Shown one piece after another: positions 6,645 to 34,720 of a stretch of 64,000 nucleotides of DNA (position 1 is its first letter; every line of letters starts with the position of its first letter). The position numbers and the translations under genes were made by a program. The stretch lies in assembly GCA_032718475.1 (NCBI GenBank), contig JAUCBJ010002723.1, positions 58,974 through 122,973 of the forward strand, read 5' to 3'. This DNA comes from Nemertoderma westbladi. Lineage: Eukaryota; Animalia; Xenacoelomorpha. Under the pieces are notes generated by a model. It had not been told where the DNA came from. It saw only the letters and a list, made by a program, of their open reading frames with translations, and made no database searches.

Positions 6645-7125
6645 ATCGGAATTTAATATAGGTTATTGTTTTTATTTGTCAAATTGGTTATTACGCATGT
6701 TATGTACGAATGTAATGTAATTATGTAAGGTTGTAACAGTTTGCAGTCCATTATGCGATGTTAGATAGTAGAAAATGATAACCGAATGCGGTTTATCAAA
6801 TGAAGTTATTTTGCCATTGATATACGGTTCTTTTATATACGATTTTATTGAAATTTATACGTATGACCCAAATTGGTATTATACCCATAAGAACCCCAAC
6901 AAATTAGACATGGAAAATTTTCAAAAAATGTCGCGATCCTCAATTTTATATTGATATTAATTAAATAAAATAACTATAGATATATATCATCCAGTTGGTA
7001 TTCCTTAGGTCATTCCAACATTAGAGACCGTGCTTGACGGTATATTTTCATTATCTTCCGTCCATAAATAAAATATTACAAATTCTATAATACCTTTGTA
7101 TTCGATTTTGTAGGCCTATAATATT

Positions 7126-10100
7126 ATTGATGTTAACGACATACTGACTAACAGGGGGTTGGTATGTATATATTAAATTAAATTAAAGGAAGAACAGGAG
7201 TCTACACCCCCAATAAAAAATATAGAATCAGGACATTTAGCCCAAAATATTTCTCGACCCCTAGGGTCATCGAAAGAACAACAAACACACAAACACAAAC
7301 AAATATAAATACATGCTAAACATACAGGTATGTGTCGCAACCCTAACCCTAAGCCTACCCGCCATACACTAAATGATACCGTTAATAAACTGCACAATAG
7401 CTAAGCCTATATTCTATAAGAAAATATATGACAATTTTGTCGCCGTGAAAGGGGTATGACTGAGGCAAAAATAATTAATTTGTGAAAAATATGGTTGCGT
7501 TTCGGTGTCTTGGACCAGTACGCGCTAATCCTCGACACCTCGTCAGCTGGACAGGGAATTAGCCAAGCCTATCTATAATGCACCAATGACCTAAAATAAT
7601 CGCACCATCAACTCTGTTACCACCTAGCCCAAAACAGAAGTCAGTCCCCTCAGACCACAGAACACAGGAACCCTATAGGCCTATGGTAAGTAAATATGTT
7701 ACCAATGGGAAACTGGTGGAATGCTAGGGCACACACACAGTACAAAATTTAAATAAGATTTTATGATTTGCAGTAATGTCGGAATTCTGCTCCACTTTCA
7801 TAAGATGATAATTGATGTTAACGACATACTGACTAACAGGGGGTTGGTATGTATATATTAAATTAAATTAAAGGAAGAACAGGAGTCTTACACCCCCAAT
7901 AAAAAATATCGAATCAGGACATTTAGCCCAAAATATTTCTCGACCCCTAGGGTCATCGAAAGAACAACAAACACACAAACACAAACAAATATAAATACAT
8001 GCTAAACATACAGGTATGTGTCGCAACCCTAACCCTAAGCCTACCCGCCATACACTAAATGATACCAATAATAAACTGCACAATAGCTAAGCCTATATTC
8101 TATAAGAAAATATATGACAATTTTGTCGCCGTGAAAGGGGTATGACTGAGGCAAAAATAATTAATTTGTGAAAAATATGGTTGCGTTTCGGTGTCTTGGA
8201 CCAGTACGCGCTAATCCTCGACACCTCGTCAGCTGGACAGGGAATTAGCCAAGCCTATCTATAATGCACCAATGACCTAAAATAATCGCACCATCAACTC
8301 TGTTACCACCTAGCCCAAAACAGAAGTCAGTCCCCTCAGACCACAGAACACAGGAACCCTATAGGCCTATGGTAAGTAAATATGTTACCAATGGGAAACT
8401 GGTGGAATGCTAGGGCACACACACAGTACAAAATTTAAATAAGATTTTATGATTTGCAGTAATGTCGGAATTCTGCTCCACTTTCATAAGATGATAATTG
8501 ATGTTAACGACATACTGACTAACAGGGGGTTGGTATGTATATATTAAATTAAATTAAAGGAAGAACAGGAGTCTTACACCCCCAATAAAAAATATAGAAT
8601 CAGGACATTTAGCCCAAAATATTTCTCGACCCCTAGGGTCATCGAAAGAACAACAAACACACAAACACAAACAAATATAAATACATGCTAAACATACAGG
8701 TATGTGTCGCAACCCTAACCCTAAGCCTACCCGCCATACACTAAATGATACCGTTAATAAACTGCACAATAGCTAAGCCTATATTCTATAAGAAAATATA
8801 TGACAATTTTGTCGCCGTGAAAGGGGTATGACTGAGGCAAAAATAATTAATTTGTGAAAAATATGGTTGCGTTTCGGTGTCTTGGACCAGTACGCGCTAA
8901 TCCTCGACACCTCGTCAGCTGGACAGGGAATTAGCCAAGCCTATCTATAATGCACCAATGACCTAAAATAATCGCACCATCAACTCTGTTACCACCTAGC
9001 CCAAAACAGAAGTCAGTCCCCTCAGACCACAGAACACAGGAACCCTATAGGCCTATGGTAAGTAAATATGTTACCAATGGGAAACTGGTGGAATGCTAGG
9101 GCACACACACAGTACAAAATTTAAATAAGATTTTATGATTTGCAGTAATGTCGGAATTCTGCTCCACTTTCATAAGATGATAATTGATGTTAACGACATA
9201 CTGACTAACAGGGGGTTGGTATGTATATATTAAATTAAATTAAAGGAAGAACAGGAGTCTTACACCCCCAATAAAAAATATAGAATCAGGACATTTAGCC
9301 CAAAATATTTCTCGACCCCTAGGGTCATCGAAAGAACAACAAACACACAAACACAAACAAATATAAATACATGCTAAACATACAGGTATGTGTCGCAACC
9401 CTAACCCTAAGCCTACCCGCCATACACTAAATGATACCGTTAATAAACTGCACAATAGCTAAGCCTATATTCTATAAGAAAATATATGACAATTTTGTCG
9501 CCATGAAAGGGGTATGACTGAGGCAAAAATAATTAATTTGTGAAAAATATGGTTGCGTTTCGGTGTCTTGGACCAGTACGCGCTAATCCTCGACACCTCG
9601 TCAGCTGGACAGGGAATTAGCCAAGCCTATCTATAATGCACCAATGACCTAAAATAATCGCACCATCAACTCTGTTACCACCTAGCCCAAAACAGAAGTC
9701 AGTCCCCTCAGACCACAGAACACAGGAACCCTATAGGCCTATGGTAAGTAAATATGTTACCAATGGGAAACTGGTGGAATGCTAGGGCACACACACAGTA
9801 CAAAATTTAAATAAGATTTTATGATTTGCAGTAATGTCGGAATTCTGCTCCACTTTCATAAGATGATAATTGATGTTAACGACATACTGACTAACAGGGG
9901 GTTGGTATGTATATATTAAATTAAATTAAAGGAAGAACAGGAGTCTTACACCCCCAATAAAAAATATAGAATCAGGACATTTAGCCCAAAATATTTCTCG
10001 ACCCCTAGGGTCATCGAAAGAACAACAAACACACAAACACAAACAAATATAAATACATGCTAAACATACAGGTATGTGTCGCAACCCTAACCCTAAGCCT

Positions 10101-10497
10101 ACCCGCCATACACTAAATGATACCGTTAATAAACTGCACAATAGCTAAGCCTATATTCTATAAGAAAATATATGACAATTTTGTCGCCGTGAAAGGGGTA
10201 TGACTGAGGCAAAAATAATTAATTTGTGAAAAATATGGTTGCGTTTCGGTGTCTTGGACCAGTACGCGCTAATCCTCGACACCTCGTCAGCTGGACAGGG
10301 AATTAGCCAAGCCTATCTATAATGCACCAATGACCTAAAATAATCGCACCATCAACTCTGTTACCACCTAGCCCAAAACAGAAGTCAGTCCCCTCAGACC
10401 ACAGAACACAGGAACCCTATAGGCCTATGGTAAGTAAATATGTTACCAATGGGAAACTGGTGGAATGCTAGGGCACACACACAGTACCAAATTTAAA
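7126..10497. repeat. Tandem array of a 686-bp unit, ~4.9 near-identical copies
   Basis: Unit start ATTGATGTTAACGACATACTG at 7126, 7811, 8497, 9183, 9869; only scattered differences. Confidence 0.97.
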
Positions 10498-10506
10498 TTA
10501 ATTATT

Positions 10507-10795
10507 ATACCCCTTTCACGGCGACAAAATTGTCATATATTTTCTTATAGAATATAGGCTTAGCTATTGTGCAGTTTATTAACGGTATCATTTAGTGTAT
10601 GGCGGGTAGGCTTAGGGTTAGGGTTGCAACACATACCTGTATGTTTAGCATGTATTTATATTTGTTTGTGTTTGTGTGTTTGTTGTTCTTTCGATGACCC
10701 TAGGGGTCGAGAAATATTTTGGGCTAAATGTCCTGATTCTATATTTTTTATTGGGGGTGTAAGACTCCTGTTCTTCCTTTAATTTAATTTAATAT
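10507..10795 (-). repeat. Inverted ~290-bp partial copy of the tandem unit
   Basis: Reverse complement of ~9911-10200; the same spurious 71-aa ORF appears on the opposite strand. Confidence 0.95.
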
Positions 10796-12091
10796 AATAT
10801 TATTATAATTTAGTTGTTGTAGTTTGTCAATTATATTTGATTAATTATTATAATGTCATTATGGAAACCAATTTAACAAAAATACATTCACCATAAGGGG
10901 GGGGGGGGGGGGGGGGGGGATGGTCTACGACATGTACTGTTAGTACGCTTACACGTTTAGCCCCATCTACATAAGACTGGCTGACAATACTATAGTCACC
11001 ATATCCATCCATACCATATCGTATTAGCTCAATTTCAAATTTAATAAATAGTAGAATCCCTAACCATATCGAACATCGTGATCGCGGTAGCTGAGGATAG
11101 CTTCAGAATTGCACCCCGGAGTGCACCACTGTGTCACCAGTTATCACTTTATGACGAAACCATACTCAATGACAAATTATAGTGAATCTGAAACTTGCAG
11201 ATGTGCTACATCACGATAGGCTGTAACTTTCTGATGCAGGTTTCTAATTAAGCAACCGTATATATTTAAATAAGGTGAGAGAGCGAGTGTTTTTTCATGA
11301 AATTTTTACGGTGCGAGCTACTGCGAAGGAGTGAGACATGCATAGTTTTACCATTTCATTTAGTAAACTGTCTTGGTGTCGTCGCCAAAAACGTTTGAAA
11401 GCTACTAACTCAGTCAATCATTTATGAAATGAAACCATATTTCTATAAGAATTTACAATTTATAGTAAGTTATATTGAGTGCAGCCTCTGCTCCGAAATT
11501 ATGAAAGAAGAGGGTTGCTGAGAAGAGACAGCACGGATCCCCAGCATCCAAGCTTGTAGATTGTAATTGATATGTTTCATGAATTGGGACTACAAATTCT
11601 CTAACTGGCGACACTGGAGATTGATTCGTGAGTCTGAGCCCAGATAAATTATCTACAAGGGGGTCACGTGTTATCCGAGCTCGGAAGGGAAGAATCGTAA
11701 TTGAAAAATTTGAGCCACGTCGATTTTTTGGCCGGATTTCATCTGGAATCAATTTTCTTATTTGTTATTCCATTGCATAATTGTGTAGTTTACAACTTTT
11801 ATTGGTTGAAATTAATTATTTTGTTCAGAATGATTTGGTAATCAATTAAATTTTATATTTTTTTTATTTTCGTAATTTAGTAACTTTTATTTTATTTATC
11901 ATCTTATTACTAAAATACTGTATAAATATAAAAACAATTAAATTTGTTTAATTATAAATAATTATAATATCTTATTATTATTGTCACCGGGGAAACTCAT
12001 TAAGCAGAAATACATTCTCAAAGGCATTTCAGTTCATGTGACTTTTTTTCTACTACACTTATTTTCTCACTTTGTGCCAGTTTGCGTTGTA

Positions 12092-13934: not shown

Positions 13935-14923
13935 TACTACTACTACTACTACGATCGGCATGCTGCATTGCAGCTGCATTTTTAAGAATGCTGTGCCGGC
14001 TTATCGACAAAATCGCACCACCACAACTCCCTATCACCCATGACATTTGCTAGATCATCCGCATCTTCAAGGCCAGTGTCCTTTAAGATGCGTCTCAAGA
14101 AAGTCATGGGTTGTCCACCATGCTTATTCACTCCATGAGGCTGCCAAAGTACAAGATTATGCACTGGCTGGTCCTCACGGCGAAAGCAATGTCCTGCAAA
14201 GCGGAGCCGATTTTGTTCTAGTGTCAAGCTTGGGGGAACCAATGAGACACCTCCAATGTTATATAGTGTCTGGTTGGAGATGTGTGCATTGAACTTGACA
14301 CAATGAACCCGGCGTAGCATTCTTGTGAATGTGCCATCCAGAGATTTGGTGTCCTCAGCAGTTAGAGCCCAGCATGGACTCCCATAGAGGAGTACTGGAA
14401 CTACTGCTGCTCTAAATAACCGGACCTTAAGTTTCCGATTAATTCTCGGTGACTTCCAAATCCTGGAAAGCCTATTCAAGGCTGCCCATGCCTTTCCCTT
14501 ACGTATTCGAAGGTCCTCACCTGACTTCCGGATCCATGATCCCAGGTAACAGAAGTCATCCACATGCTCAAGCATACCATCTTTTGAGCTTATGCTCATC
14601 CGATCAGAGACTTGCTGAGAACTTTCAAAGTCAACTGTCAAAATTTTGGTCTTTCTGGAGTTAATAAAAAGACCAACACTAGAAGCAGCATGTTCTAATG
14701 AGCTGAGGAGCTGTTGGGCTCCCTCTAGTGATTCTGAGAGTACTCCTACGTCATCAGCAAAGTCTAGATCAGTTAGGTACTTGGCAGGATTTCCTCGACT
14801 TCTGGAGCCAGTAGGTGAAGTTATCATCACCCCATCATCATTATGATGATCTAAGGACATGCGTAGAACATAGTCAACAACAATTATGAACAAGAATGGT
14901 GCAAGTGTGTCTCCCGGCACTAC
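13935..14923 (-). mobile_element. 5'-truncated RTE-like LINE (copy 2), RT C-terminal half
   Basis: GDTLAPFLFIIVVDYVLR, LDFADD, YLGS, RLRFAGHC; short 3'UTR and (GTA)n tail at 13935-13952. Confidence 0.93.
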
Positions 14924-14939
14924 TATGTCTTGTACACAC

Positions 14940-16231
14940 CCCCCCCCACTTTTGTTATAGAACATATTTATTGTTCTAGAACACATTTATTATGTTCTAG
15001 AACAAAATTTATTTTGATAAAAAAAAATATTATTGTTCTAGAACAAATTTTTTTTCTAGAATTTATTTTTATTTTTCCAGTTTCTATAGTAATTATATAT
15101 TTCGAGAATATTTATGGAGGGATACATTTTCTTAATATTTAAAAATGTTATAGAAATAGTTATACTGTTGTAGCTACATCATATTTAGTTTTAGTTATGA
15201 GTGAAATTAATAAAAAAAGACATGTCAGCAAAAGAGCATCGTTTGCCAACCCCAATATTGAGGAAATATCTTATCATCTGAGAACAGAACTGAGCGCAAT
15301 TGAGTTTGCTCAGGAACTAGGGTTGATGCCAGTAAACAATGAGAATGTATTAAAGATATGTCAAGTAGAAGGGTGTGAAAGTCCAATGAACCTCAGAATT
15401 ATGGCTCGTACGAATCAGCCAGAGAGACTAATCTGGAGATGCAAGGGGAAGGGGAAGCATTACGTTTCTGCACGCACCGGCACCTGGTTTAAGGGGCATT
15501 TGCTTGTAAAGCAAATAATATGGATAGAGTATCTTTTTACAGCAGACATTACCTTCGCAAATACCCATCGCCTTATGGGAGGAATAATAGGTACCTGCGA
15601 CGAAGTGGTTGCCTATTGGCACAACTATACTAGGGAGTTGTTCTATGAAGACATGATGACGTCACCACTAATGGGAGGACCAGGAGAATCAGTCCAGATT
15701 GGTGAATCTCTATTTCGTGGGAGGAGAAAGTATAATAGGGGAAGAAAGCTTGAAGGGGACTACGGTTTGTCAAAAGGTTCCCAAGCGAACTATGGCAAGC
15801 GCATCGATGGGCCATGGATCTTTGGCATTGCATGGCAACGCAACGATAAAGTTGTAGACACTCGTCTATTCGTAGTAAAGAGACGGGACATGAGGACCTT
15901 ACGTCCCATTGTGGAGAGTAATGTGAAAGGAGGGTCAGTCATATATAGTGACGAGTGGGGGCATACTGCGGGAAAACTATAGGCATTCGTGGGAGTAGAG
16001 GTCCGTGGAGAGCAGTAGATGGAAGCGGTCAGTACAAACACAAAACGATTAACCATAGCAAGAGGGGAGCAGGGAGGTTTTACGATAAGAAAACAGGAGC
16101 AAACACCCAAAGGATAGAGAGTATCTGGAAACAGGCAAAGCAATTAATTATACGCAAACGAAGAGGTACAAAGATGCTGGCACACCACTTGGCAGAATAC
16201 AGATGGCGTTTACTACATAAAGAATCACCAT
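14940..16231 (+). mobile_element. Merlin (IS1016/ISXO2-like) DNA transposon, left part with transposase pseudogene 15197-16231
   Basis: CQVEGC..WRC..H..S.RTGTWF, GGPGESVQIGES (D>G), WIFG, IYSDEW, INHS, NTQRIESIW; frameshift ~15960; repeated palindrome TGTTCTAGAACA at the left end. Confidence 0.9.
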
Positions 16232-18133
16232 TATAGAATTATATTCTCATAAATACCGTGGATTTTCAAAATTTTATTTTGTTCGAATTAACTTTCTATA
16301 AAGATTACATTAAGTCCTCATTTGCATTTACTATATCTATTTGTATAACATTGGAAATTCGTTAGCGTTGGAAATTCGTGTAGTAGGTATCGAGTTCGAA
16401 TCCTAGTAAGTGTGAATTATTTTTTGTGCTGAGTTTCAACTCATTTAAATTAACCGCTACGAATTAAATTGCATTTGCTCAAGTTGATTAACCAATAAGA
16501 TTGCAGTTATTAGATAATAACCAATGTCGTGCAAGATACGTGTTCGCTGGACCAATGATTATCTTTAAAAACCTAGTAGAACCCATAGAACAATCTAGAT
16601 TTATCTCGATTGATTGCAGCACAAATTTGCTATAAAAGGTGCGATTTTGTTCATTAGTTATCTATCTTATCTTAGCATTATTCACTTCTATATCACATTA
16701 TACATTAGTATTATATTAGTATTAGTATTAGATAGTGACGTTATTTCACTCTTGTTACGTTTATTGTATATTAGTTTTGTAATAAAAGTTAGAAATACTT
16801 GTTACATCTGTTTTACTATGCTTCACCACGGTGAACCCAACTGAGGGACAGATGGCTGGCTAGACAGCGGACCGCGGCAATAGACGGGAACATCGGAGGA
16901 ATGTAGGAAGGAGACAACCCGCAATATCCATTCTTAGTTATTCGCCCATCGCCTGAAAGGTTAGACAGCGTTCGATGCCTTGCTACCTAAGTGTAAGACC
17001 TAAGATCGAAGGTAGAGGTAGTGACACGCTGTGTGCTAAAAAATTCCATCTAGGGACTGTACTGTCTTAATTCAGAGAAAAACCCGCAGTAGACCTTCAC
17101 ATTCCTACGGGGGGAGGAGGAGATCAGGCAGAACGATACTAGTACACAGATAGGACGCAGGCACACCAGTACAAGGCATACACATTGGTAGGGTGCAGCA
17201 AACTGTACGCCTAACTCTTGCTAAGTATAGGTGCGTCGGTGGCTGTTTGTAGTACAACGGTGTCCATTTGCGTTAGAACTTGTAGGCCAGGAAGGGTTAC
17301 TGTGTTTTACCTGAATTAGGATTGTACCGTTCAGGCGGTAGGGCAGTTTATTACTAGGCGCAAAATAAATTGAGGCTATTAGGGATACTAACATCTACCG
17401 TGTCCCCACCGACATTCTGTTAGGAAGTTGCCGTGCCCACCTAGGCAACCAAAATTCTAGATAGGACGCCAGGCTAGCTATTTGTAACTGTACGCCTACT
17501 GTAGTAAACTAACACATTTCTTCTTAGTATTAGGGACCTGGTAAATTAAATTGCCGAATTCTGGGCGTAGTATTAACCTTATGCCTGAATTTGAGTCCTG
17601 GAAATACACAAAAGGGGAAGGAGCCTTATCATTCGTGAGTATTGGACCTACAAGCTACAAAATTAGAATATTTGTAAAATGTACACCGGACCCAGTAATT
17701 ATATATGTGAAGGATCTAAAACCGATTTTGACCGTTAGAATCAAGACACACGCGCGTTAGAAATTATTTACACCTCAAAATATATAAAATAATTTTTGTC
17801 CGTACTGCGCTTTGCCCGCTAGTTAGACATTTCTGCACCTAGCTAGCGTCTCTCTATCCCAACCATATAAATCACACCGCGGCAAAGTATACGAGCGCCT
17901 TAGTCCGTCAGTGAGTCAGCCTGATTTTAGGATTCGCTGCGCGGGATTTTGTTTTATCGAAGTTTGTCCGTTCGTAGACTGTTTTCTGCCTCACCGGTTA
18001 TAAGAGACCGATACTGCAATATATATTCGCTTACTTAGAGTTTACTGTTTTGGTGAGAAGGTCGGATTATGTTTTGATTCACAAACTTTACAGTAGGATA
18101 TTGCAGGGTATTTTGTTACTGTCTCTTCAAATA
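16232..18133 (+). repeat. 5' LTR (1902 bp), TAT...ATA termini
   Basis: Direct repeat of 33074-34607; TATAAAA at 16631, AATAAA at 16781. Confidence 0.95.
16631..16786 (+). promoter_or_regulatory. LTR TATA box, initiator-like site and polyadenylation signal
   Basis: TATAAAA at 16631, TCATTAGTT about 20-30 nt downstream, AATAAA at 16781; same arrangement in the 3' LTR (AATAAA 33642). Confidence 0.55.
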
Positions 18134-18942
18134 GTAGGAATGTGTTTTACTGAACTACGGTTCAGTAGGACTAAAGTTATTTGAAAATTTTGTATTTTGA
18201 GGTAAAAAATTTGTATTTGATTGGCTAAGTGCTAATTTTTGAAATAAAAATTTTGATGAACCGCGTGTAAAATATTTGGAATTGAATACCGGTGTTTAAA
18301 AGGGTTTAAATACCATATTGTACCAGTACAAAATTTTCGTAAAAGTAAAACCTAACTCTTTTGTTTTTCAGGATTCAGAGCTCATTTCTAGACTGTAACG
18401 AGAGCAAGACCGTGTTTAGCAAGTTTGGGAGATAGATAACTCAACAACTTTGGTTGGGAAAATCGCACTTCGTCCGCAACGCTGGAAACGGAAAGGTTCA
18501 CATCCGGTTTGTATCTGGGAATCTGTTTTTCTGGAGAATCATTGGAGGGGGTGAGTTCAAAAGGTTGCATAAATCAGTTAGGCATTACCGTATATTAGTT
18601 AAAATTATTGTGGGTTCCACTGTCTCAAGTATTTATGCATTCCGTACGATTTCTTTGTTTATTGCTGAATTAGTCCGTTAATTATTTGTATAATCTACTT
18701 TTGATAACGTATATCGTTATCCGATTTATTTGTTGTAAAATTGGCCGCTAGGCTAATTTTATTATATACTTACTCCATGACATTTATTTGCTGTAAAATT
18801 GGCCGCTAGGCTAATTTTATCCATCTGCTATAAAATCGGCCGGTAGGCTAATTTTATATGACTGTAATTAATACCGTTTAGATATAAAATACGGTAAGTT
18901 TGATACATTGACACTCACTTTACTTGACTTACAACTGCCGAA

Positions 18943-21900
18943 ATGAGTGACAAACAGGATCATACGAAGAATACACCTACCGACTATGACTCATGTGACG
19001 CGGATAAGTCAGAAGCGGAAGAACCACAGGGGAAGACTCGCGAGCCTACTGAACCTACACCGTGCGCGTCACCAGTACATCCAACGGGAGTACCGGATGC
19101 CGTAGTACGAGGCGACGGCAGGACTGAGGATTTTCTAACAGTCCCGCAACCTAGACATAGAGAAACGGACATGGTAAGTTCAGTAGGAAGCCAGGAGAGC
19201 GTGGTTAGAAGCGTCGGAGGATACATGGCGCATATTACCAGGAGTATTGGAGAAGGCCAACGCATATTAGACGAGTTGACCGCTCCGATGTCTCGGTTCG
19301 AGTTCTACACCCTACAGGTTAGAGTACAGAGTAAAGTACATAAGTCCGTAGATAATCTAATTGGTCTACAAGATCTAGCTAGACAGAGACAGGATATGGA
19401 CACACAGTTTAGAATCCTCGAGAAATTAATGATCGCTAGGGAGAAACTGATTCAGTTTAAGACGACCGTTAGACAGATACAACAGGAACAAGCAGACCAG
19501 TTATTAGGTGAGTTGGTTTCTGACGAGTTATTGCAGCCCGAGGAAGAACAGGAACTGTACAGACTGGATGGACAATTGAAACATCTGACAGATCACTTAC
19601 GGCGGCGATGACGTCGGCGATTAGGAAACTGTGCCGGAATATACGAAGGAAACTTCACCCGTATAAATCGAACCGGCACCGGGAATACTGGATCAATCAT
19701 TGGTGAGTATTCGTAGCGAAATTGGCGAGGTAAGTATAGTGACGTCAGAGATTTCTCGACAGCAACAACAGTACTACAGACAACAACGAGAAATTGAGGA
19801 ACAAACTCAATTATTAACTGTACAAGCAGCTGTAGAGGAAGAGAAACTACGCGTCGCAAATGTCGCGAGGATTTCTCATTTACAAGAAGCAGCCGAACTG
19901 GAAGCGGCTGAGATGGAAAGGTTAGAGTTAGAAATAGCACGGCGAACAGCGGCAGCTGAGTTAGCGCAACGAGCGGCAGCAGCTGAGTTGGAACGACAAG
20001 CGGCAGCAGCTGAGTTGGAACGACGAGCAGCAGCAGCTGAGTTGGAGCGATGATCAGCAGAGTGGGAAGAACTCAAGCGAGTTTCGGAAGCGAGAGCTGA
20101 GTTGAAAAAACAACAGATAAAGGATCAATCAGCTATACGAGTAGTGGAGTTCGAGGCGCAACAACAACATACGGAACAACGCGAGAAGGAAGTTAAACTT
20201 CATTTCGAACTCGAAAAGAAGGCGAGGGAATTAGCCAACGCTAAGGAAGATCTGGATCTACAAGCCCGCGATCGATCGATGAGATCTCGAGACGGACACG
20301 ATCTAGACCGGATAGAGGTAAGACATCGTCAAATTCAGGAACGAATGAAGGAAGGAAGCGTAGGAGCACCTGAGCGAGAACGGGAATTGGTTAAAGACTT
20401 ATGTCAACGATTTCCTCAAGTAACTCCGATGTTCGCACCAATTACGAATAAAGGACCTGTTTTGATTGCTGGTAGTAGCAGTATATCTCCTATACACGAT
20501 GCAACGGAACACAGGTATGTTATTCCGGACAAGTTTGTACCGCCAAGAGCAACGTCATCGCCTATTCCGAGAGTCAAGGTAAGTAATCCGCCAATAACGG
20601 ATCGTAGTAGTTTGTTAGTCGGACCTACATTAATGACGACTAAACAGGTGAGTCAACCTTCGACACCTAAACCTGTGACACACTACGCAAACCCAATCGT
20701 ATTCAGGCCTTCAAGGCCGTTAGACTCAAACGCCATACGACCACAAATTCAGTTTACATCACAATCTACGACTTCGAGGAAGACCTGCGAGCCTACCGAA
20801 CAACGGAGACCAGTGGATACGCGACCGCTTAATCAGTTTACATCGCAATCTATGACTTCGAGGAAGACCTGCGAGCCCACCGAGCAACGGAGACCAGTGG
20901 ATACGCGACCGCTTAATCAGTTTACATCGCAATCTACGACTTCGAGGAAGACCTGTGAGCCTACCGAACAACGGAAACCAGTAGACGATGTTTCTAAACG
21001 GAATGTTAGAATTCGGACAACCCAACGGACGCGAGCACGTCGGCCACCGTATCCAGGTGATAGTAGTACTTCAAGCGAATCGGATTACCCGGAACGCGAG
21101 GTGTTTAGAACAGGAGCGGCCGATGAATGCAAACGCGAGCATTCAACTAATTCCTTTATAGACAATCCTCCACAAAATACACCAACACAGAAAGCGTTAC
21201 AACCAACGGACGCGATCAGTACACAACAATTCGCCGACATTTTGCGACCAGTTGTTAACAAGTTGGCCCAGATCGAGGAACGCTTAGAGGAAGTTCAAAC
21301 CGATAGTTCGAGAAATACCGAATTCGAACACAATAGAAACCCGAAGGATCCGCAAAGAGCGATACCTTCAAGAAACACCTCGTATCAAAGAAAAGCGCCA
21401 AGACGGGAGAACATCAACTCGATTGCCACCCAAGGACGCGAAACTTTGAACGTAGCCGAGGAGATAGCTAAATTTGCAGCCAGACAAGGACTACAGGTGC
21501 AACAACCACCTAAGTTTTCCGGTAACTCCAAACATTGGCACACATTCGTAGACTACATCGAATCTCAAATTGCTGCATGCGCTTTTACATCAAGGGAAAA
21601 GTTTAACTACCTGCTTCAAACATTGATGGGAGAACCCAAACGTTTAGCAGAGACTTTCGTTGGTGTACCAGATGCGTTCGAGTTAGCATACGATCGCTTA
21701 ACTTCAATCTACGGAGGTACAGTCAGCATGGCCAAGTCAGTGATAGAGGAACTCTGTAAGGGGGGGGGGGGGCTATTACTAAACCCGTCGACTTACTAAA
21801 ACTAGCTGACGAAATTAAGAACGCTATCACTACATTACGATCCATTGGACAACTCGATTACGGGAACACCCCTACAGTCCTATTAAAAATCATAGGGAGA

Positions 21901-24900
21901 CTACACCATCGACTTCGTCGGGAGTGGAGGAAGATCGAATATCAGCGAGAAGAAAGGGGTGGATTTTTGAAACTGGAGGATGTGTACCTATTAATATCTA
22001 GGGAAGCAGTGGTGGAGACTCGATCTAACTACACTGACCAACACATTGTAGCAGAAGGAATCACCTTACCATCATACAACCGACAAAAACCACCGACGAC
22101 ATCCACCAAGACGGCCACTTACGCCACACCGACAGAAACCCGACAATTTTCGGACGGTAGTAAAGTATCCGCACCTATTGGGATCAAACAGACCAGACAG
22201 CAACTGAGTGCAGACTTTAGCGGTTGCCAATACTGCGAGCAGTTAGGCAAGCGGCATACCAGTCACAAGTTAAGATGTTGTCGGCTATTTCGTGAGTTAA
22301 ACTCGGAAGAACGACGGCTACAGATCCGGCCATTGGATTCTTGTTGGCGGTGTACGCAACACGGACACGTTCGCAAAGATTGCCCAAATACGGACACCTG
22401 TCCATCCTGTGGACGCAACCATGACGGTTTGTTCCATACCGATAGTCATACGCCAACAAAACGCTTCACTAGGGAACACCCAGAAGCAGCAGCGAAATGC
22501 AATACCGCATATAAGAATCGAGAATCGAGAACAACACCAACTTTCGTGACGCATATTCGGGATTGTTTCCCAGAACAATCCGGGTCTTCTGATGAGGAAT
22601 TCGAGGACGACGACATGTGCTCAGATGGGGACGAGCAGCCGTCGATTGCGCTTCTGACGCCTGACCAACTCAAGGGATTTAGCGTAATTCCTGTCAAGAT
22701 TACTGGCACAAAAGGGAGCAAACGGATTTACGCTAATATAGATTCAGCCTCATCTCACAGCTATGTGGACGAGAAGGTAGCTGATGTCGTGACGGATCTC
22801 CGATAAGGTAAGAACGTCAAATACACTGTAAGTAGTATGCATGGACAACGTGCAATACCAGTGACACGAGTTAAGTTAAACTTAGACACTCTTCTTCCGA
22901 AATCGCAACATAGCGAAAGGGAGAGGTCTTTGTTACCCTTTAAGGATTTAACTTTTGCGGCCACTAAGGACTTTAGTAATCTACTGGGTCCAGTGCCAGA
23001 ACAATCCTTAGAGGACCGTAAGTATTTCAGACACCTTGGTGTACCTGAATGTCCTGTTAACTATAGATCAGTAGCAATGCTGATCGGGACAGATCAATTC
23101 AACTTACATTAAGTGTGGGAAACCAGACCATCGGTAGTCGTAGCAGGAAATGCATACGCCTGTCGAACTCCGATAGGTTGGTATACTCGAGCGCCTGTGC
23201 GCACACTAGATATAAGTGATGAGGAAGACGATGTACAAAGTACATGTAGTTTATTAACTACAACTTCAACTCATTCTTTTTCACACGACAAAGACTATAC
23301 TACACTACGTTCGACAAAACACAACAACGTTACAAGTACGATGTGTGTAGCGAGTACGATAAGTCACAAAGAGCAGCCAATCCACAAGGTTAGTGTAGTG
23401 ATTGAAAAGGAGCGGAGTCAGGCAGAGGATCCATCAACGATAGATTATAACGCCGGAAGGCTTGCGAGTCTACCTCAACCAATAACCTCAACAACGCCCG
23501 TCGATGAAGATGCGTTAAGAAATCATCAAGTGGAACAAGCCGCGCTAGACAAAGAATTAACAGAGAAAACTATCAGATGGTTGGAACAAGATACAGCCGA
23601 ACCTGGTAGTTACGAACCATGTATGTCGGAACAAGAGAAACAATCTTTAAAGATCATGGAAGATACTATCCGCCAGACGAAAGACGGACATTATGAGGTA
23701 GGGATGCTATGGCGTAACCAACGTCCTAAACTTATAAATAATTATCCGCTAGCCTTAAGATGTTTAAACTCAATACGACAACGGTTATTAAAGGATGAGA
23801 AAGCCCATCTGCAGTATAATACTCAGATGGAGACGTATTTTACAAAAGGATACGCTATCAAAATGACAAACCCAGAGATTGTAACAGACCAGACATACTA
23901 CTTGCCACATCACTACGTGAGACACCCCGACAAACCTGATAAAGTACGTGTGGTTAATGACTGCGCGGCTCTGTTTGAGGGAATGTCTCTCAATAGTGAG
24001 TTGATGGATGGACCAAACATGAATAATTATCTCATGGGGGTGATTATGCGCTTCCATCAGCGCCAAGTAGCATTTACTTGCGACGTCGAAGCCATGTTTC
24101 ACCAAGTGCGAGAGTTAGAGCGAGACAGAGACAGTTTGAGGTTCCTCTGGTACCCGGATGGAGACTTAAGTCAACCACCGGCGACTTACCAAATGCAAGT
24201 TCGTGTTTTCGGTGCCAGAGACAGCCCAAATTGTACTATGTACGCCCTAAAACAGACCGCTAGGGACCAGAAACATAAGTATGACCCAGAGGTAATCCAG
24301 ATCGTAGAACGAGATTTTTATGTGGACGATGGATTACAAAGTTGTGACACAGTAGAACGTGCTATAACAGTAGCACATCAATTACGGGACTGTTTAGCAG
24401 GCGGAGGTTTTAACCTCACCAAGTTTGCCTCAAACAGTGCCGAATTAGTAAATTCATTCGAAACGACTGAACGTGGGGGTGGTGACATTGACTTAGAGTT
24501 TGAACCACTACCAACGACCAAGGTGTTGGGACTATTTTGGGACCCGAACACAGACAACTTTCGAGTGAAAGTAAGACTGGACGCTCAAGGGGATTCTCTG
24601 ACAAAGAGGTCTTGCTTGTCGAAACTAAGTAGACTGTTCGATCCATTAGGTTTCATCAGCCCAATAATACTGCAAGCAAGAATATACATGCGCAGTATCT
24701 GGAAAGATGGACTGACATGGGACGAACCGATCTCATCAGAACAAGTGGACTTATGGAAGACTTGGGAGGCGCAATTATCTTCACTAGAGGATTATTCCAT
24801 ACCCCGGGTGTACTTTCCATTACAGACGACATTTCCTGACAACTTAGAATTACATTGTTTTTCCGACGCCAGTGACAACGGCTTTGGAGTGACAGCGTAT

Positions 24901-27684
24901 TTGTGCAGACAAGTAGACTCAGATGAGTTTGATGTTTCGCTCATTACTTCTAAGGCTAAAACCATGCCTACTAAGTATATGACGACACCACGCGCTGAAC
25001 TACAAGCGGCAACCCTGTAAACTACCATTGTGAACCTTATACAGATGGAATTACAATCAAGTTTACAGATATTTTATTGGACTGACGCGACGTTAGTTTT
25101 ATTTTATATAAACAACGACACACTTGAATTCAAGACATTTGTAGCTAACCATCGTGCAGAAATTCTAGACCGTTCAATAAAGGAAGATTGGCGACATTGT
25201 CCCGGACCACAAAATCCAGCTGATATTGCGTCGCGAGGAATGATGCCCGAGGAATTCTGTAAACCGGAAAACAAGGAATTTTGGCAACACGGACCGCAAT
25301 TCTTACAAAGAGCAACACAACATTGGCCGCCACTATACGATAACAAGTCTAATACTATTCCTAAGGACGCCGAAATTAAAAAACCAAAGAAAGGTAAAGC
25401 AAAGAAAAGGACAACGGCGAAACTTAAGAAGAAACCAAAGGCGAAATGGAAAAATATAACTTACAAAGTCAAGACAGGAATTCTTGCGAGCCTTTCTCAA
25501 CCAGACGTATCGCCAGACGGTCAACCAGACATGTTACCAGACGCTCAACCAGACGTATCGCCAGACGGTCAACCAGACATGTTACCAGATGCTCAACCAG
25601 ACGTATCGCCAGACGGTCAACCAGACATGTTACCAGACGCTCAACCAGACGTATCGCCAGACGCTAAACCAGACACGTTACCAGACAGTCAACCAGACAT
25701 TTTGCCAGACATGTCACTAGACGTTTCGCCGGATGTTCCGCGAAACATTTTACCAGACATTTCACAAGATGTTCTACCAGACATTAGTAACGTAGTGACA
25801 CATAGTAAAGCCGCAGTTTCCCTATTGGAGCGGCCTTCTATTGACAAACTACCAAACTTGACACCCCTGAGTAACCATAAGTACAGTGAAACCTCATGTA
25901 TTACAGATGTGGGTAGTACCTACGCAAATGTAAATACAGGTGTTACTTTACGCTCAAGAGACATACCAACCTTACAACCTACGGTGAAACCTGGGATCGA
26001 CACACAAAGTACCGACAATCAAGGTAAGAAGACAAAGAAGGACAAATTACTCGTAGACCCGGACGGATCAACAGCCAACAAGGGAATACTTACCGGCGGA
26101 CCCGTGGGTCCATCTAGTAAATCAAAACCTTCCAAATTCATCATTGACTTACCTGATGACGTCATAAATACTTACGTCGACCGTATTGTAAATCTGACCG
26201 ATTCTTGGACAAATGCGTGCCGAAAATTAGCGTGGATTGTACGTTTTGTACAATACGTTAAAGGCAAACGCGACTTTACACGTGGACTTACATTGACTGA
26301 GATTGACAGATGTGAAATTAAATTAATTCGCCATTACCAATTGCGATATTTCGCACGCGAATTCACATCCATAAGTCAAGGTCAACCAATCAAGTCGTCA
26401 CCAATATTGAGTTGGAGTCCGATAATTTATAATGGCTTAATTTGTCATAAATCTCTGCTTCAAAACATCGACTTTAATACTGATTTTAGGTACCCAATAA
26501 TAATACCGCAACATCACGAATTACAACGTGCAATGATACTGGACGCACATTTACATCTGAAACACGCTGGAAGACACCACTGTCTTTCCTACTTACGTAC
26601 TAGATTTGTATTAATTAGACCCAGTAAAGCGCTAAGTTCAGTGACACGTATGTGTATTATTTGTAAGAAGGTACATTCTAGAATAAGTACCCAAGAAATG
26701 AGTGAACTTCCACAAGCACGACTACAGGCATTCAGACCACCTTTCACAGAGACTGGAATTGACTGCTTTGGTCCCATACATACGAAACGTGGACGTATAC
26801 TGTTAAAATGCTGGGGACTGATTTTCACATGCATGTCCAGTAGGGCAGTTCATATTGAACGTGTGATGGATCTTTCCACCAACGCCTTTATACTAGCATT
26901 GCGGCGATTTATCGCTAGACGCGGATTAGTAAAATGCTTGTACTCAGACCAAGGTACAAACTTTGTTGGTGCTCGAAATGAAATTGCTAGAGCCTTTAAG
27001 AAATTAGATCATGATCAAATCTCAAACGAACTACGTCCTTACAAAATTGTTTGGAAGTTTAATCCTCCAGATAGTCCATGGAGAGGCGGAGTCTGGGAGA
27101 GATTGATTAGATCTATAAAAACAGCCATGGCAAAAGTAATTCCAGTAAACCACATCTTGACAGACGACCAACTGACAACATTGTTTGTTGAAATCGAGGC
27201 AATACTAAATACTAGACCAATACTATTAGTACCCGATGACAAACAATCCCAGTTTGCTTTAACACCTGCACACCTGCTAATGCAGGCACCGACTTCATTG
27301 TTGCCTATTTCTATTCCAATAGAAGGCGATAGCTACGGTAGAAAAGCGTGGAAAATCACGTAACTACTGGCTAACAAATTCTGGGAAATATGGCAAAATC
27401 ATTATTTGCCCTCTATTTCTGCCAGAACTACTTGGTACAATAATACTCACGCTTTAAAGCCGGGAGATCATGTACTGTTAGCAGAAGTGAATCTAAAAAG
27501 ACGCTTCTGGATAACAGGTGTTATTTTAGACACACATCCATCTATGGATGGAGTGACAAGAACTGTGACGGTACGGACAATTGACGGTCGTACAGTAGAC
27601 AGACCGACTCAACGTCTCGTACTTCTTGAAGAGACGCGAAACAAGTCTGGAGATTACAAGTCTCCAACAAATGTTAGTAAATAG
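18943..27684 (+). pseudogene. BEL/Pao gag-pol polyprotein, disrupted
   Basis: DUF1759-like PPKFSGNSKHW; three knuckles (CQYC..H, CWRCTQHGHVRKDC, CPSCGRNHDGLFH); protease IDSAS; RT YVDD; RNase H LHCFSDAS; integrase H..H..C..C, GIDCFGP, SDQGTNF, GGVWERLIRSIK; DUF5641-like tail. Stops at 20051, 22804, 23110, 25018, 27361; frameshifts ~19610 and in the G-run ~21760. Confidence 0.96.
25498..25785 (+). repeat. Coding minisatellite (QPDVSPDG/QPDMLPDA; 12-nt subunit, 48-nt period) in the RNase H-integrase linker
   Basis: CAACCAGACGTATCGCCAGACGG.. repeated in frame. Confidence 0.9.
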
Positions 27685-28334
27685 TAAGGAGTTTACAAAT
27701 AGATTTCCACGTACCTGTACACTGTAGTAAAGACAGCGGTAGAATTCCATTGTCTTTATATGTGAACATTGAGGGTAGTACCTTTATGTGTCACATAGGA
27801 GCGGGATTTGTAGGTATAAGAAATGGAATTCTACTTGGAACTCACAATATTGAGACATTTTCGAAATTTTAGACAATCCATTTGGATTTGAAAAATTTTA
27901 AAATTTTCTCCAGTGAATAGATTTCAGGGTACAGTCGGGTGGAACTTAAAATTAGAGAAACAAGAGAACGGAAGACTCGCGAGCCTTTCTAAATTTTAAT
28001 AAAATTTACACGGTCTTGTTTCAATAAGTTACGTCAAATAATAGACTTCCCTATATTTATTACTAACTCTTGATTGCTTATTTTCTGATAATAGTTTGGG
28101 ATCAAAAAGTGAGTATTTTAAGACTCACAGCCCAAATTCGTTTTTTATTTCGGCAAAATTTTAGATAAGAAACAGTGTGTCATTAAAGAAACCCTAGATC
28201 TTAGGCTATGGGTAGGAGGTTAGAGCGTTGTCGAGCCAAAGGGTAGACGAAAACTCTCACATCTCCTCACAACTAACAATAAACTCTGTTGTATTCCCTC
28301 TAGTAGCAATGATTATGTAACCATACTTCAAAAA

Positions 28335-31300
28335 ATGGCGAAGGGGATACATGGAGAGCCGAGATGGGGATATGATATCCAAGAGGAAGCAGCAGCGCCA
28401 TTTGAACGATTTGGAGCTAAAGACTACACCATATTCGGAATAAAGGATTTATCAGAGAGTACAGCGAAACTCGCAAAGACTAAATATGACTCAAACGTAT
28501 TAAAGAGAAGGCAAAACGCGTTAAATGAAAGAATCGAAAGTTTACGCAAAACCTTCAATGAACTTTACCCGTACGACGCTTTATGTGATACGGGAGATAT
28601 TAGCGAAGACCCCAATACCGAAATAAGTCGTTTGTATCATACCATGCAATACCTGAAGGCGCATGAACCTATGCCTGCGGTACGCGATGAATTCAATGGA
28701 ATGCATCTTTACAGACGAACTCGAGGGGACGATAGAGAAACGAAGGAAGCATTTTCAGTTTATAAACTTTATTATCAATGTGGTGCTTGTATGCGCGAAC
28801 AACGAAATGCGATTCCGATGCGTTTGAATAAGGAAAATCCCGAACCGATATTGGCGAGGTGTTCGAACCATCAACAACTACGCTACCAGGAAGTAGGGTA
28901 TCCTTTATCGAATCCATATCATTCATTCGCTATGTGTGGACCAAAGGCAGGAGAAATTGTCGTTTACCCACCTAAGGTTGTTGAACCCGATGCATTTGAA
29001 CTTACGCTGGGCAAGGCGACTCAGTCAACCCGCGAAAAGAAAGAAGCTCTTAGCCTATACAGAGCCTACAAGGCTTTCGAGAAAGGTGAGATGGAAGAAT
29101 GGGGTGGAAGACTCGCGAGCCTACCTTACCATTGGACGTCACACGATCAAACCTCAGCTAAGGAGATGACACCGGAAGTTTTCGAAAGTATAAACTATGC
29201 TCAAAACGTTATTCAGAGACTACAGATTGCATCCCCGGAAAGGACAAGAGAAATGCAACCGTATAGTACTTCGACTACGAAACCATTGAGTACGACACTC
29301 AATTTCCCTATTAGTGTACCAGTTCGACAAGATACGACGTATGAAATACCTATGGTGGATCATCCGGAAATCATTTCGAACTTAGAGTTTCTTCCTGCAG
29401 TCGTTCTAAGCGATATGGTTAAGATATATGATTTACGTAGACATATTACGCAAAAGGTCGTGCATAATGTTCCGCCTCATATTCAAGACTTTAGGGAACT
29501 GGATAGAGCTGGCGCTGATATAGCTCCGAGTAACCTAAAAGGATATTTAACCAGAACAATTCGCTTATGGATTGGAACAGGAACCTTTGAGTCGGATACA
29601 GATATCGCTGCGGACTGGCAAGGTAAAGTCATTCGTTTCGAGGACGAGAAAGACATCGAGAAGATTTGGCAACCTTTGGAAGAATTACTGGACGAATGGA
29701 ATAGGACGTTTAGATCGTTTCAGGAAAATGGTTACATGTCTTATGACAACGAGGGCGGCAGCCATCAGCAGAGTCTGACCTCCAAGACTATACAAATTAG
29801 AGCGGCAGACGGAGTTTTGCACGTTTTCAGTAGACAAAGGAGCGACAAGCGAATTCCGATACCTCCAGGAACTACCAAGCGGCACCATCTCATCACTAAT
29901 ATAGTAAAGAAGATGGACCAGGCTTGCAATATTGATGCTAGAATGTTACCAAAGATGGTAAGAAATATGATTTTAGATAAAACCGTTGTAAAGATTGGAT
30001 CAGGAGTGAGAGAGGACTTAATTAGCGACTTCGCCGGCATGTCGGACAGTGACGACCGATTACCGACACCTTACGTCGACACTCGACCTCTTATACTGTG
30101 GTCTATAGAACAAGGATATTTCCGTGAGTACGATACTCAGAAGACTGGAACTGGATACATTTCCTACCTGATGTTTAATTGGGAAAGAACAAAGTATATT
30201 GAAACATATGGAGAAGGTGATACTCCGGATATAAATGAGTTTGAATCACAGCTTAAATGGAGAAATTGCTTAAATTGGGCTATTACTTCGCCTCCAAGAG
30301 CAGTATTACAATATTATTTAGCGATAGAGTCATCAGTGAATGTTTGCTTAGTCGCCGACATTGTGTCTCGGACTCTTAAAAGACATCCACTTTGTCTCGG
30401 AGAAGATCATACGTTCTACGTGGAAGGGAGAATTCATACCGATGTGTTTAGACGGTTTCTCGAACCCTTCTACAATTCCGACGCTCAGTGTAATGCCTTC
30501 ACTCGAGCAGGATTTAGTATATTTCGAGACGTGTATCTTCGCTGTGCGGGATCTCTTATCGAAAGACCATCTATGTTTACATTGTTACCCTATGAAGGAG
30601 AACGTATCGTGGAGCTTACGGACGAATCACGGCAGACGCGCGCGCCTATCGGTCACTTAGGTGATGATTTCGAAGTAACAACGATCATTGACGATCCTTT
30701 AGAGGAACTTCTTGAGATTGAAAGGAACCTCCCGAAGAAATCTCAGACGGAGATTCGACAACTAGAAGCAACAGATGCTGTAGTTTGCATACAACCTTCT
30801 GAAACATACCAACCTATCGATCCAGACGATTATGACTATAGTGTGGGAGGAAGCGCTCGACCCATTGGAGATCTTATATATGAGCGAGTGTGGTACCCTG
30901 CTAATATGATGTGTGGTAAATGTGGCGTCGCTGGACATCATTCGACAAAGTGCAGTGGAAAGCACATTACTACGACTCAACTAATCTGTGGATGGTGTGG
31001 AGATCAAGGGTCCCATACATTTTATACTTGCTGGAGATTTATGGCTCAATGCACATACTGCAATATAAAGGGACATCGAGCATCTGAATGCCAATTGCGA
31101 GACATACCTTACGAACACGAATCTGTAAAACTCGTGAGAAAACTATTCGACGATTGGGAAGATTTAGCTGACGAACATGTATCGGCACAAAGAAGATGAT
31201 TCCCGATGAGAGCGCATCTTGGATTTTGGGCGGTAAATCCCCAAACTATGATGTCGGAAGGATATATCTCCGCTATGCCACAATATGACGAACTTATCGA

Positions 31301-32042
31301 GGTAGTTGATATTTTGCCTCAAGATAGTTGATTTCAAGTTGTGCGCGAATACTTGTTACAGATTCACCCCGACAATAAGAATACATGGAATTTCCAGAAA
31401 GTCGTTAATCGTATCACATATGGTGAATTTGATCGTTTCCGAACGGAAAAGCGGAACAAGGGAGCTTGGTTAACCGTCGCATGGGCGTACTGAGCCGCGT
31501 TCTACCATAAACGTATACGAGCGAGCGTATTCGAGGAAGAGGAGGTCCTAGAGGCGACCAACATACCAGCTACTCCGGTCGCGCCGTCTGCACGTCACCC
31601 TCGGGAGGACGGACAGCATAGGATCATAAGGGTTCAGAAAGTGGGCCAACAACTAAAGAAAACTATCAATGTTGAAGAACGAAGGGGATACGAACCGACT
31701 ATTCGAATTACTCGAGATACGGTGTCGCTTCCCAGAGAACCGCAAGGAGGATCGGGATATATACCAGCTGATCAAAAGGGGGCGCAAGTTTCTCTTGGGT
31801 CTGCGTCGTCCGCTTCCCACGCGTTCCCAGACGTTTTACCAGCGGTAGACACAACCGATCGGTCACGAGGAATCGGACGAGGATTTGGGATAACTAAGAG
31901 ACGAATATGTGAGGAAATGGTCGTACCATCTCCCAACATCCAAAGTAAACCGGTGACTCGCCCCATAAGTCCTATATCACGAGCTAAATTACCGATACGC
32001 AGTTTTCGAGGACGCGGCAGGGCTCGATCCGCTAAGCGATAA
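28335..32042 (+). pseudogene. Extra ORF (~1235 codons): DEDDy 3'-5' exonuclease (WRN/EXD/mut-7-like) plus 3 CCHC zinc knuckles; three in-frame TGA stops after codon 954
   Basis: ExoI MSYDNEG, IQI, ExoII LPKMVRNMILDKTVVKIGSGVRED, YVDT, ExoIII NW...LQYYLAIE; CGKCGVAGHHSTKC, CGWCGDQGSHTFYTC, CTYCNIKGHRASEC. ORF 31641-32042 is in the same frame. Confidence 0.8.
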
Positions 32043-32140
32043 ATAAAGTGTTATATTTAAAAGGACTAATTATTCCGAACTCGCAAGAACTCATATAAAG
32101 CAGGAAGGAAAGAGTGGACAGAAGACTCGTGAGCCTTTCT

Positions 32141-32266
32141 TATGTATTGTTTATCTTATGTATTGTTTATCTTATGTATTGTTTATCTTATGTATTGTTT
32201 ATCTTATGTATTGTTTATCTTATGTATTGTTTATCTTATGTATTGTTTATCTTATGTATTGTTTAT
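32141..32266. repeat. 17-bp tandem repeat (TTATGTATTGTTTATCT)n in the element 3'UTR
   Basis: About 7 copies. Confidence 0.95.
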
Positions 32267-32410
32267 GTAATTTGTATTGTTTATGCAATTTATTATTGCC
32301 CCAAGTTTATGTATTTGTATTGTTCCGATTTTATGAAATTCAGAAAGTTTTATATTTAGAAGGAATTTATATTTGAAAGATTTATATTTTATATTTGAGA
32401 TGCCTAAAGA

Positions 32411-32563
32411 GTTTATATTGTTCTAAACTTATGCAGTTTATATTGTTCTAAACTTATGCAGTTTATATTGTTCTAAACTTATGCAGTTTATATTGTTCTA
32501 AACTTATGCAGTTTATATTGTTCTAAACTTATGCAGTTTATATTGTTCTAAACTTATGCAGTT
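32411..32563. repeat. 25-bp tandem repeat (GTTTATATTGTTCTAAACTTATGCA)n
   Basis: Six copies, with degenerate copies downstream. Confidence 0.95.
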
Positions 32564-33073
32564 CATATTTATATTTAGTAAGATTTATATTTAGAAAGTG
32601 CTATATTTGTAGTCATTCCAAACTTACGCAATTTATTGTTTCGAATATTATGCAATTTATATTTTATAAAGAAGCAGTACTTGTATTCGCAGTAAATAGA
32701 AGGCAAGAGCAGACGGAAGACTTGTGAGCCTTTCTTGTGACTTATTTGAAATTATTCCGAACTTATGCAATTTGTTTTATATTTAAGTAGTATTAGTATT
32801 TGTGATTGTTTGAATTTATGCAATATTTGAGATGCAATAGATTTATTTTGGTGAATTTAATTTAGATTTATATTGTACTTACTTAATAAAGCCTTAAATA
32901 CGTAAAGTTTGAATCTGTAATTATTTGTATCGAATCATTATGTAAAGGTATTATTGTTGAGATTTAATTTGTAAATATGTATGTAAGTACGTCCCAAGTA
33001 TTCCATAATTTGATTTAGTATTGGTGAAAACCGTATATTTTATGCACGATAATATCCTGTTTTCATGGAGCGG

Positions 33074-34607: not shown

Positions 34608-34720
34608 ACCATTCCTCGACTTGATTAAACTAATAAGACAAAAGTACAAATAGGTATAAATAATAGCTATAACTAATAAAATAAAATATTTGTTCTAGAA
34701 CAAAAAATATTTTTTAAATA
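34608..34720 (+). mobile_element. Merlin transposon right part (transposase C-terminus and TGTTCTAGAACA motif)
   Basis: FLDLIKLIRQKYK* continues the frame from 16231; palindromic motif at 34691. Confidence 0.85.

Follow-up and report, generated by a model that had tools for sequence, protein, structure and literature searches.

A BEL/Pao-lineage retrotransposon of Nemertoderma westbladi with a primer-binding site complementary to its own LTR

In Tf1, the first 11 nt of the transcript serve as primer for reverse transcription after being cut by RNase H, and Tj1 of S. japonicus has been proposed to self-prime likewise (available excerpts of PMC7175516 and PMC4600332). The initial annotation of the locus described here had cited Tf1 as using an 11-nt segment of its own from the transcript 5' end, in agreement with this account (PMC7175516, in the part available). 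For the plant elements Tcn1 (gypsy) and TAR/Houba/Osr-1 (copia), self-priming was predicted from complementarity between primer-binding site (PBS) and LTR in the accessible portion of PMC6317226, which does not cover BEL/Pao, and the accessible text of PMC3601003 mentions hairpin priming for chromoviruses only. According to the ICTV profile of the Belpaoviridae, BEL/Pao replication is primed by host tRNAs and little understood; the profile gives an 18-nt PBS for host tRNA-Arg or -Gly, a genome of 4.2-10 kb and LTRs of 0.2-1.2 kb (PMC8742986). In the literature searched we found no report of self-priming in BEL/Pao, although supplements or Repbase and GyDB entries might hold one, and neither "PBS" nor "tRNA" occurs in the main text of the Sinbad paper (PMC554778) or of a BEL/Pao survey (PMC3118150).

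The N. westbladi element lies in a 64-kb window (the whole stretch of DNA that was analysed), spans 16232-34607 (18,376 bp or 18.4 kb), belongs to BEL/Pao by its proteins and, judging from its sequence and that of its relatives, very probably primes itself. It shares with Tf1/Tf2 of Schizosaccharomyces pombe, Tj1 and the Tf1/sushi group the lack of a tRNA site and a complement of about 11 nt in its own LTR (PMC7175516 and PMC4600332, as far as the excerpts go). However, the Pol of that group is of the Ty3/gypsy (chromovirus-related) type, whereas the N. westbladi element matches BEL/Pao families only; its candidate primer is situated 467 nt downstream of the TATA box, in a structured domain and a likely intron and about 1 kb from the PBS, and in 10 of 15 BEL/Pao relatives the primer is assembled across an LTR intron. 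From our point of view, the sequence thus describes an element that works like Tf1 and is not a member of the Tf1/sushi group. Tcn1 and TAR/Houba/Osr-1 differ from it in superfamily and host.

The element and its self-complementary primer-binding site

The features of the element, its proteins and its PBS are as follows:
16227-16231, no strand: left target-site duplication (TSD) ACCAT, repeated at 34608-34612
16232-18133, plus strand: 5' LTR of 1902 nt, ends TA...TA, from self-comparison and TSD
16894-16912, plus strand: predicted further stretch that is partly complementary to the primer segment (-19.2 kcal/mol)
17098-17108, plus strand: candidate self-primer CACATTCCTAC, exact reverse complement of 18134-18144
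18134-18144, plus strand: candidate PBS GTAGGAATGTG, flush with the LTR end, no TGG
18143-18170, plus strand: hairpin of 12 bp with a UACG loop, immediately behind the PBS (z -3.1)
18928-27684, plus strand: gag-pol region with DUF1759, zinc knuckle, RT, Peptidase_A17/RNase H region and integrase
28224-31199, plus strand: ORF3, 991 codons from stop to stop, open, two zinc knuckles
About 29676-30374, plus strand: WRN-like 3'-5' exonuclease-like domain of ORF3 (Atlas 0.93)
33066-33073, plus strand: short purine-rich tract before the 3' LTR; the same 30 nt occur in one contig of run X5
33074-34607, plus strand: 3' LTR from self-comparison, without equivalents of 16946-17103, 17332-17343 and 17734-17950

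Since the 5-bp ACCAT stands at both outer ends, the LTR limits, and with them the TA...TA ends, are firm. In the self-comparison the two LTRs show 10 mismatches in 1503 aligned nt, plus several large deletions. Pfam returned DUF1759 (2.5e-8), Peptidase_A17 (7.6e-38) and Integrase_H2C2 (4.5e-4), with the integrase behind RT/RNase H. A search with Pol gave 394 matches at E<=1e-20; all of the 120 listed contain PF05380, and among these 120 the RT-RNase H region shows 37-45% identity to the Pol of BEL/Pao elements from corals, echinoderms, molluscs and fish. Common to the element and the Belpaoviridae profile are DUF1759, Peptidase_A17, the PR-RT-RH-IN layout and the 5-bp TSD. In contrast to that profile, the element exceeds the size range (18.4 kb, with a 5' LTR of 1.9 kb) and carries an 11-nt self-complementary PBS, TA...TA ends and an exonuclease-like ORF3; its protein sequences indicate that it is a BEL/Pao-lineage variant, apart from the tRNA-primed type of the profile. 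The purine tract is short and interrupted, like the degenerate tracts of the relatives, a BEL/Pao polypurine tract being about 10 nt long; the idea that a purine run after the primer replaces a missing polypurine tract was dropped because the relatives' tracts are similarly short.

The gag-pol region of this copy holds stops ending at 19611, 20053, 21799, 22806, 23112, 25020 and 27363 as well as frame changes, and since the copy is broken, its signals could have drifted. As a separate observation, the frame continues past five of these seven stops, the LTRs differ by only 0.7%, ORF3 is free of stops, and the stop load of gag-pol exceeds what would be expected from LTR age. The family has many copies, as 3566 contig records of run X1 and 1431 of another run map to 16150-18500. 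The exact junction pattern gave 0 matches in metagenomes, and 0 relatives were found in viral contigs.

Several further observations concern the element's sequence and its surroundings. A bipartite motif, AGATAGGACGC ... CTGTACGCCTA, occurs in two copies in the LTR (17148-17213 and 17459-17498), both kept in the 3' LTR, which are candidates for repeated packaging or protein-binding hairpins, and between the RNase H region and the integrase a 24-nt tandem repeat in pol (25448-25806) encodes a Pro/Asp-rich spacer. Upstream, the element adjoins a fragment of an ISXO2-like (Merlin-type) transposase (15143-15982), and the minus strand carries a Penelope-like or LINE RT fragment with DUF6451 (13982-14986). 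Elsewhere in the window, 7123-10796 holds a tandem array of five nearly identical 686-bp units, behind which part of a unit is repeated in inverted orientation, and 43521-44888 an intronless F-box/WD40-like open frame of 455 codons.

The annotation had proposed that the 11 nt behind the 5' LTR, in place of a TGG, are exactly complementary to the element's own LTR at 17098-17108, and both parts of this proposal hold: TGG is absent at the TSD-defined end, and the reverse complement of GTAGGAATGTG is contiguous and found once in the window, the next-best Watson-Crick partner anchored at 18134 reaching 8 nt anywhere in the 64 kb. Its chance estimate of about 5e-4 is matched by the measured background, in which 7 of 14,866 interior positions (this site included) have an anchored match of at least 11 nt in 16660-18133 (4.7e-4). 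The primer:PBS duplex stops exactly at the LTR boundary, where G17109 is opposite A18133. A spliced primer was also looked for in this element and none was found. As annotated, too, the segment is mostly deleted in the 3' LTR, where 158 nt (16946-17103) are gone and about the last 5 nt of the segment remain.

The proposed continuation of the duplex past a bulge (17087-17093 with 18145-18151) fared less well. It can form, and among all partners in 16232-18950 the PBS is the best for 17087-17110 (-23.5 kcal/mol versus -21.5 and -19.2), but the local 12-bp hairpin wins in two-strand folds. Since these folds keep the hairpin at 18143-18170, with 10 of the 11 primer:PBS pairs forming beside it, the bulged extension is doubtful.

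Self-pairing among BEL/Pao relatives

An alignment of the RT fetched 79 metagenome loci (from the best 80 of at least 519) and 12 from genome bins, all 32-44% identical. Among these 91 loci, 34 have a direct repeat around the RT. We examined 17 of these and retained the 15 in which the 5' LTR end is resolved, with 36-44% RT identity to the N. westbladi element. Two loci, L019 and L061, whose best matches are 5 and 8 nt, did not enter the count, since their repeats extend to the contig end and leave the LTR end unresolved; in the other 17 repeat loci the repeat reaches the contig end or equals a short contig overlap. The LTR end of L091 was placed by analogy with its near twin L020, and a 5-bp TSD is present in five of the eight relatives having both outer ends. 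The 15 are partly dependent: L020/L091, L006/L015/L032 and L066/L079 form related groups, and several have a family or host in common.

Each PBS was scored against the LTR with and without GT-AG introns. At the first pass, a match of at least 10 nt to the own LTR was found in 12 of 15 relatives, compared with 13 of 240 foreign pairs (same-family pairs included). After post hoc corrections, namely moving the LTR end of L045 by 10 nt, widening the donor set for L032 and allowing one G-U pair, the figures are 14 of 15 versus 5 of 230 other-family pairs, with L084 scoring 9; two of the 14 passed only after these changes. The match spans an LTR intron in ten relatives, eight of which were found at the first pass with GTAAG donors and pyrimidine-rich acceptors, and is contiguous in the other five, as in the N. 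westbladi element. It begins 2-4 nt after the LTR in 14 of 15 relatives and is flush in L085 and in N. westbladi. As an observation in its own right, the PBS of L006, L015, L016, L020, L030, L032, L045, L052, L085 and L091 pairs only across the exon-exon junction of the intron, over 11-15 nt.

The annotation had suggested looking for compensatory changes in aligned relatives, and had regarded a normal TGG site in them, or a complementarity that is not conserved, as speaking against self-priming. The letters behind the LTR are nearly all different among the 15 relatives and yet pair with the own LTR in 12 of them (14 post hoc); L085 alone has a TGG in the 7 nt that follow the LTR, one base behind it, and in none of the 15 foreign LTRs does the PBS of the N. 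westbladi element match more than 7 nt. Letters that change while self-pairing is kept fit a self-templated PBS and do not fit a host primer.

In a quick tree of 88 rows, which leaves out L088-L091 (short) and any tRNA-primed outgroup, the N. westbladi RT falls inside a set of seven rows together with the self-complementary L016 (SH-aLRT 99), as a long branch (1.44) with no close relative; spliced and contiguous primer types are not clustered. We also considered whether RNA downstream of the primer forms a conserved helix with the LTR end, and rejected this: such a helix is predicted in N. westbladi (-13.5 kcal/mol, 1 of 15 foreign sequences being as good) but is absent as a rule in the relatives (mean rank 7.6 of 15). 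Two further observations concern the loci themselves. In L001, L030, L045 and L079 the right LTR end is TA and the left end TG, the N. westbladi LTR being TA...TA and not TG...CA, and L080-L091 are BEL/Pao contigs from 11 bins of bacterial genomes, into which animal host DNA has probably been sorted along with that of symbionts.

Position of the primer in the transcript

The following features bear on transcription, folding and splicing:
16631-16637, plus strand: TATA box, with a predicted start near 16657-16661
16781-16786, plus strand: proximal AATAAA, upstream of the primer segment
16960-18371, plus strand: likely intron, GT...AG, holding primer segment, structured domain and PBS, from one contig of run X4
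17087-17302, plus strand: predicted structured domain (z -4.3, 0 of 200 shuffles)
17364-17369, plus strand: distal AATAAA, 256 nt downstream of the primer, a candidate genomic-RNA signal by the relatives' layout

The TATA box of N. westbladi at 16631 is 467 nt away from the candidate primer, none being found about 30 nt upstream of the segment, and among the 15 relatives only L016 has a TATA-like word at that distance. An internal primer also occurs outside N. westbladi, as it straddles a splice junction in 10 relatives. In all 13 relatives with a poly(A) signal in the LTR, AATAAA or ATTAAA lies 7-136 nt downstream of the primer (7-13 nt in four of them) and never upstream, which places the primer in R. 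The original placement of the segment in U5 is hence not supported, although signals stand on both sides of it here (16781 and 17364), and from the relatives' layout the N. westbladi segment is probably in R as well. An RNA that is cut after the primer and still jumps by R needs its primer upstream of the poly(A) signal. If the proximal AATAAA, which has a U-rich stretch behind it, were used, the segment would be in U5 and a cut in cis would be fatal to strand transfer. In retroviral poly(A) occlusion a splice site can suppress a poly(A) site, and one could speculate that the 5' splice site at 16960, which both LTRs carry when intact, suppresses the proximal signal in the same manner.

In the predicted fold of the domain, the primer segment pairs with 17280-17302 at the domain base and leaves 17099-17103 in an internal loop. 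Single-strand folds of 16657-18250 keep this pairing with a probability of about 0.98. When domain and PBS leader are folded as two strands, however, they switch to the primer:PBS duplex (-104.4 versus -82.9 and -14.5), a predicted gain of 7 kcal/mol. No known ribozyme was recognised in the LTR by Rfam.

The sequence 16960-18371 is likely an intron. The X4 contig skips 1412 nt, with 22 nt on the short side, and a branch-like CTAAC and a pyrimidine tract precede the acceptor; the join is not seen in X1, X3 or X5. Given so short a flank and the listing of X4 as 'DNA?', the intron is a good lead and not proof. Such splicing would delete primer and PBS from the mRNA, whereas in ten relatives splicing builds the primer.

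Routes to the primer 3' end

A Tf1-like RNase H cut within R is, by analogy, the source of the primer 3'-OH towards which we lean slightly. Unspliced RNA would serve as genome, and splicing of 16960-18371 would yield mRNA free of primer and PBS. The PBS would invade the primer-holding stem through the open loop at 17099-17103, and 17098-17108 of the element's own LTR RNA would act as minus-strand primer at its exact complement after a cut between 17108 and 17109, made as in Tf1 by the element's own RT/RNase H. The RNA downstream of 17109 would then be copied into about 1025 nt of strong-stop DNA, which would jump to a 3' R reaching past 17109; since R must extend that far, the genomic RNA would end after the distal poly(A) signal (17364) or after one further downstream. 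Copied into the plus strand, the primer would re-template the PBS in each cycle and could keep both in step. ORF3 would be an accessory gene that is not needed for priming.

The annotation had also suggested trimming of the primer by the element's own exonuclease. Atlas groups ORF3 residues 485-717 with WRN-like 3'-5' exonucleases (0.93, 175 shared features, recognition 2678; 0.92 for a longer piece), with 30 of 30 named matches in the PF01612 set. Acidic stretches at residues 506, 590, 617 and 696, read by eye, are what we take to be DEDDy-like motifs. ORF3 has neither a Pfam nor a PDB match and 0 sequence homologues among 7400 candidates and 1.84 billion representatives, and its single-sequence structure model reaches a pLDDT of 30; from the Atlas comparison, the putative exonuclease-like domain looks real. 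Juno and Vesta, LTR retrotransposons of bdelloid rotifers, likewise have a DEDDy 3'-5' exonuclease-like ORF3 after pol, but they are not BEL/Pao and share 0 sequence matches with the N. westbladi ORF3; in the part available, their description contains neither 'PBS' nor 'self-prim' (PMC5408684). In the ten measurable relatives, only 83-372 nt separate the integrase from the 3' LTR, and none of the 91 loci has an ORF3 match. Since these relatives pair with themselves and lack ORF3, it is not needed for priming in the lineage, and trimming by the element's exonuclease is not supported for it; from the sequences, self-pairing predates ORF3 or is independent of it. Trimming by ORF3 is possible for the N. 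westbladi family only.

Among the alternatives to a cut in R, one leaves the 5' end uncut and lets the R-borne segment of the 3' copy pair with the PBS, to be trimmed by the ORF3 exonuclease or a host enzyme. It would suit the finding that the poly(A) signal follows the primer in 13 of 13 relatives (at 7-13 nt in four), the duplex that halts exactly at the LTR end, and an ORF3 that is open and exonuclease-like, with acidic residues presumably at the expected motif positions. However, the relatives self-pair without ORF3, trimming here would have to take away about 275 nt, with a stable domain among them, as well as the poly(A) tail, and the DEDDy ORFs of rotifer LTR elements have no stated link to priming in the available portion of PMC5408684; we consider this alternative unlikely. 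Its fuller version seems to us more unlikely again: the genomic RNA would fold its 3' end back onto its own PBS, a captured WRN-like exonuclease would trim the primer, and one splice would remove primer and PBS and so sort mRNA from genome. This would amount to a third mode of initiating reverse transcription in LTR elements, requiring neither a tRNA nor cleavage of the 5' end. A shade less probable than even this version is priming in trans. Polyadenylation would then occur at the proximal site, the segment would be genuine U5, and cutting or trimming at 17108 would yield the primer from a separate RNA, either the dimer partner, the spliced-out intron or a transcript of a solo LTR. The textbook-looking TATA (16631) and AATAAA (16781) with its U-rich stretch, the likely intron that holds the segment and the many family copies (3566 records in X1) are in keeping with such an arrangement; it requires an extra RNA species, and a poly(A) signal upstream of the primer is found in 0 of 13 relatives.

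Priming by a host RNA (a tRNA half, an internal tRNA fragment or another small RNA), with an LTR match that is incidental, is very improbable: the N. westbladi element has no TGG, and the varied post-LTR sequences of the 15 relatives pair with their own LTR and not with others', even though host-tRNA priming is described for the family (PMC8742986), half-tRNA primers exist in copia lineages (accessible part of PMC6317226) and L085 has a TGG one base after its LTR. Least credible of all is a chance match or local decay, by which a broken copy would have lost an ordinary PBS. This copy does have several stops and LTRs that differ by large deletions, and the reads listed cover 40 of 185 substitutions, 12 of 85 indels and 23 of 291 loose ends, so that other junction forms are possible, but the probability of the match is about 5e-4 and the same layout recurs in the relatives; weakly in the same direction, 0 of 11 joints and 0 of the 40 listed substitutions (185 in total) touch 17098-17108 or 18134-18144.

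The idea of an element-encoded tRNA primer comes from the nematode Cer elements. It was rejected here, ARAGORN predicting 0 genes in the window and Rfam giving no credible match in 16100-19000 or 33074-33500, and a tRNA-like U3 segment was discarded as primer source since its pairing with the PBS yields no more than -5.8 and -8.3 kcal/mol. Independently of priming, this segment (33196-33270 and 16364-16430, the 5' LTR copy lacking about 29 nt) is followed by a T run and holds words that we take to be A-box- and B-box-like; it may be a Pol III promoter of SINE origin within the LTR.

Overall, the N. westbladi layout appears extreme: primer and PBS are 1 kb apart, a likely intron encloses the primer, and an exonuclease-like gene accompanies it. 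The competing routes to the primer 3'-OH in this element predict different RNA ends that can be mapped. The tRNA-PBS filters of LTR annotation tools would miss or mislabel such elements. The covariation between PBS and LTR points to a widespread animal BEL/Pao lineage that is self-primed from an internal piece of R, contiguous or spliced. With such a lineage, self-priming would be confined neither to gypsy and copia groups nor to the first nucleotides of the transcript.
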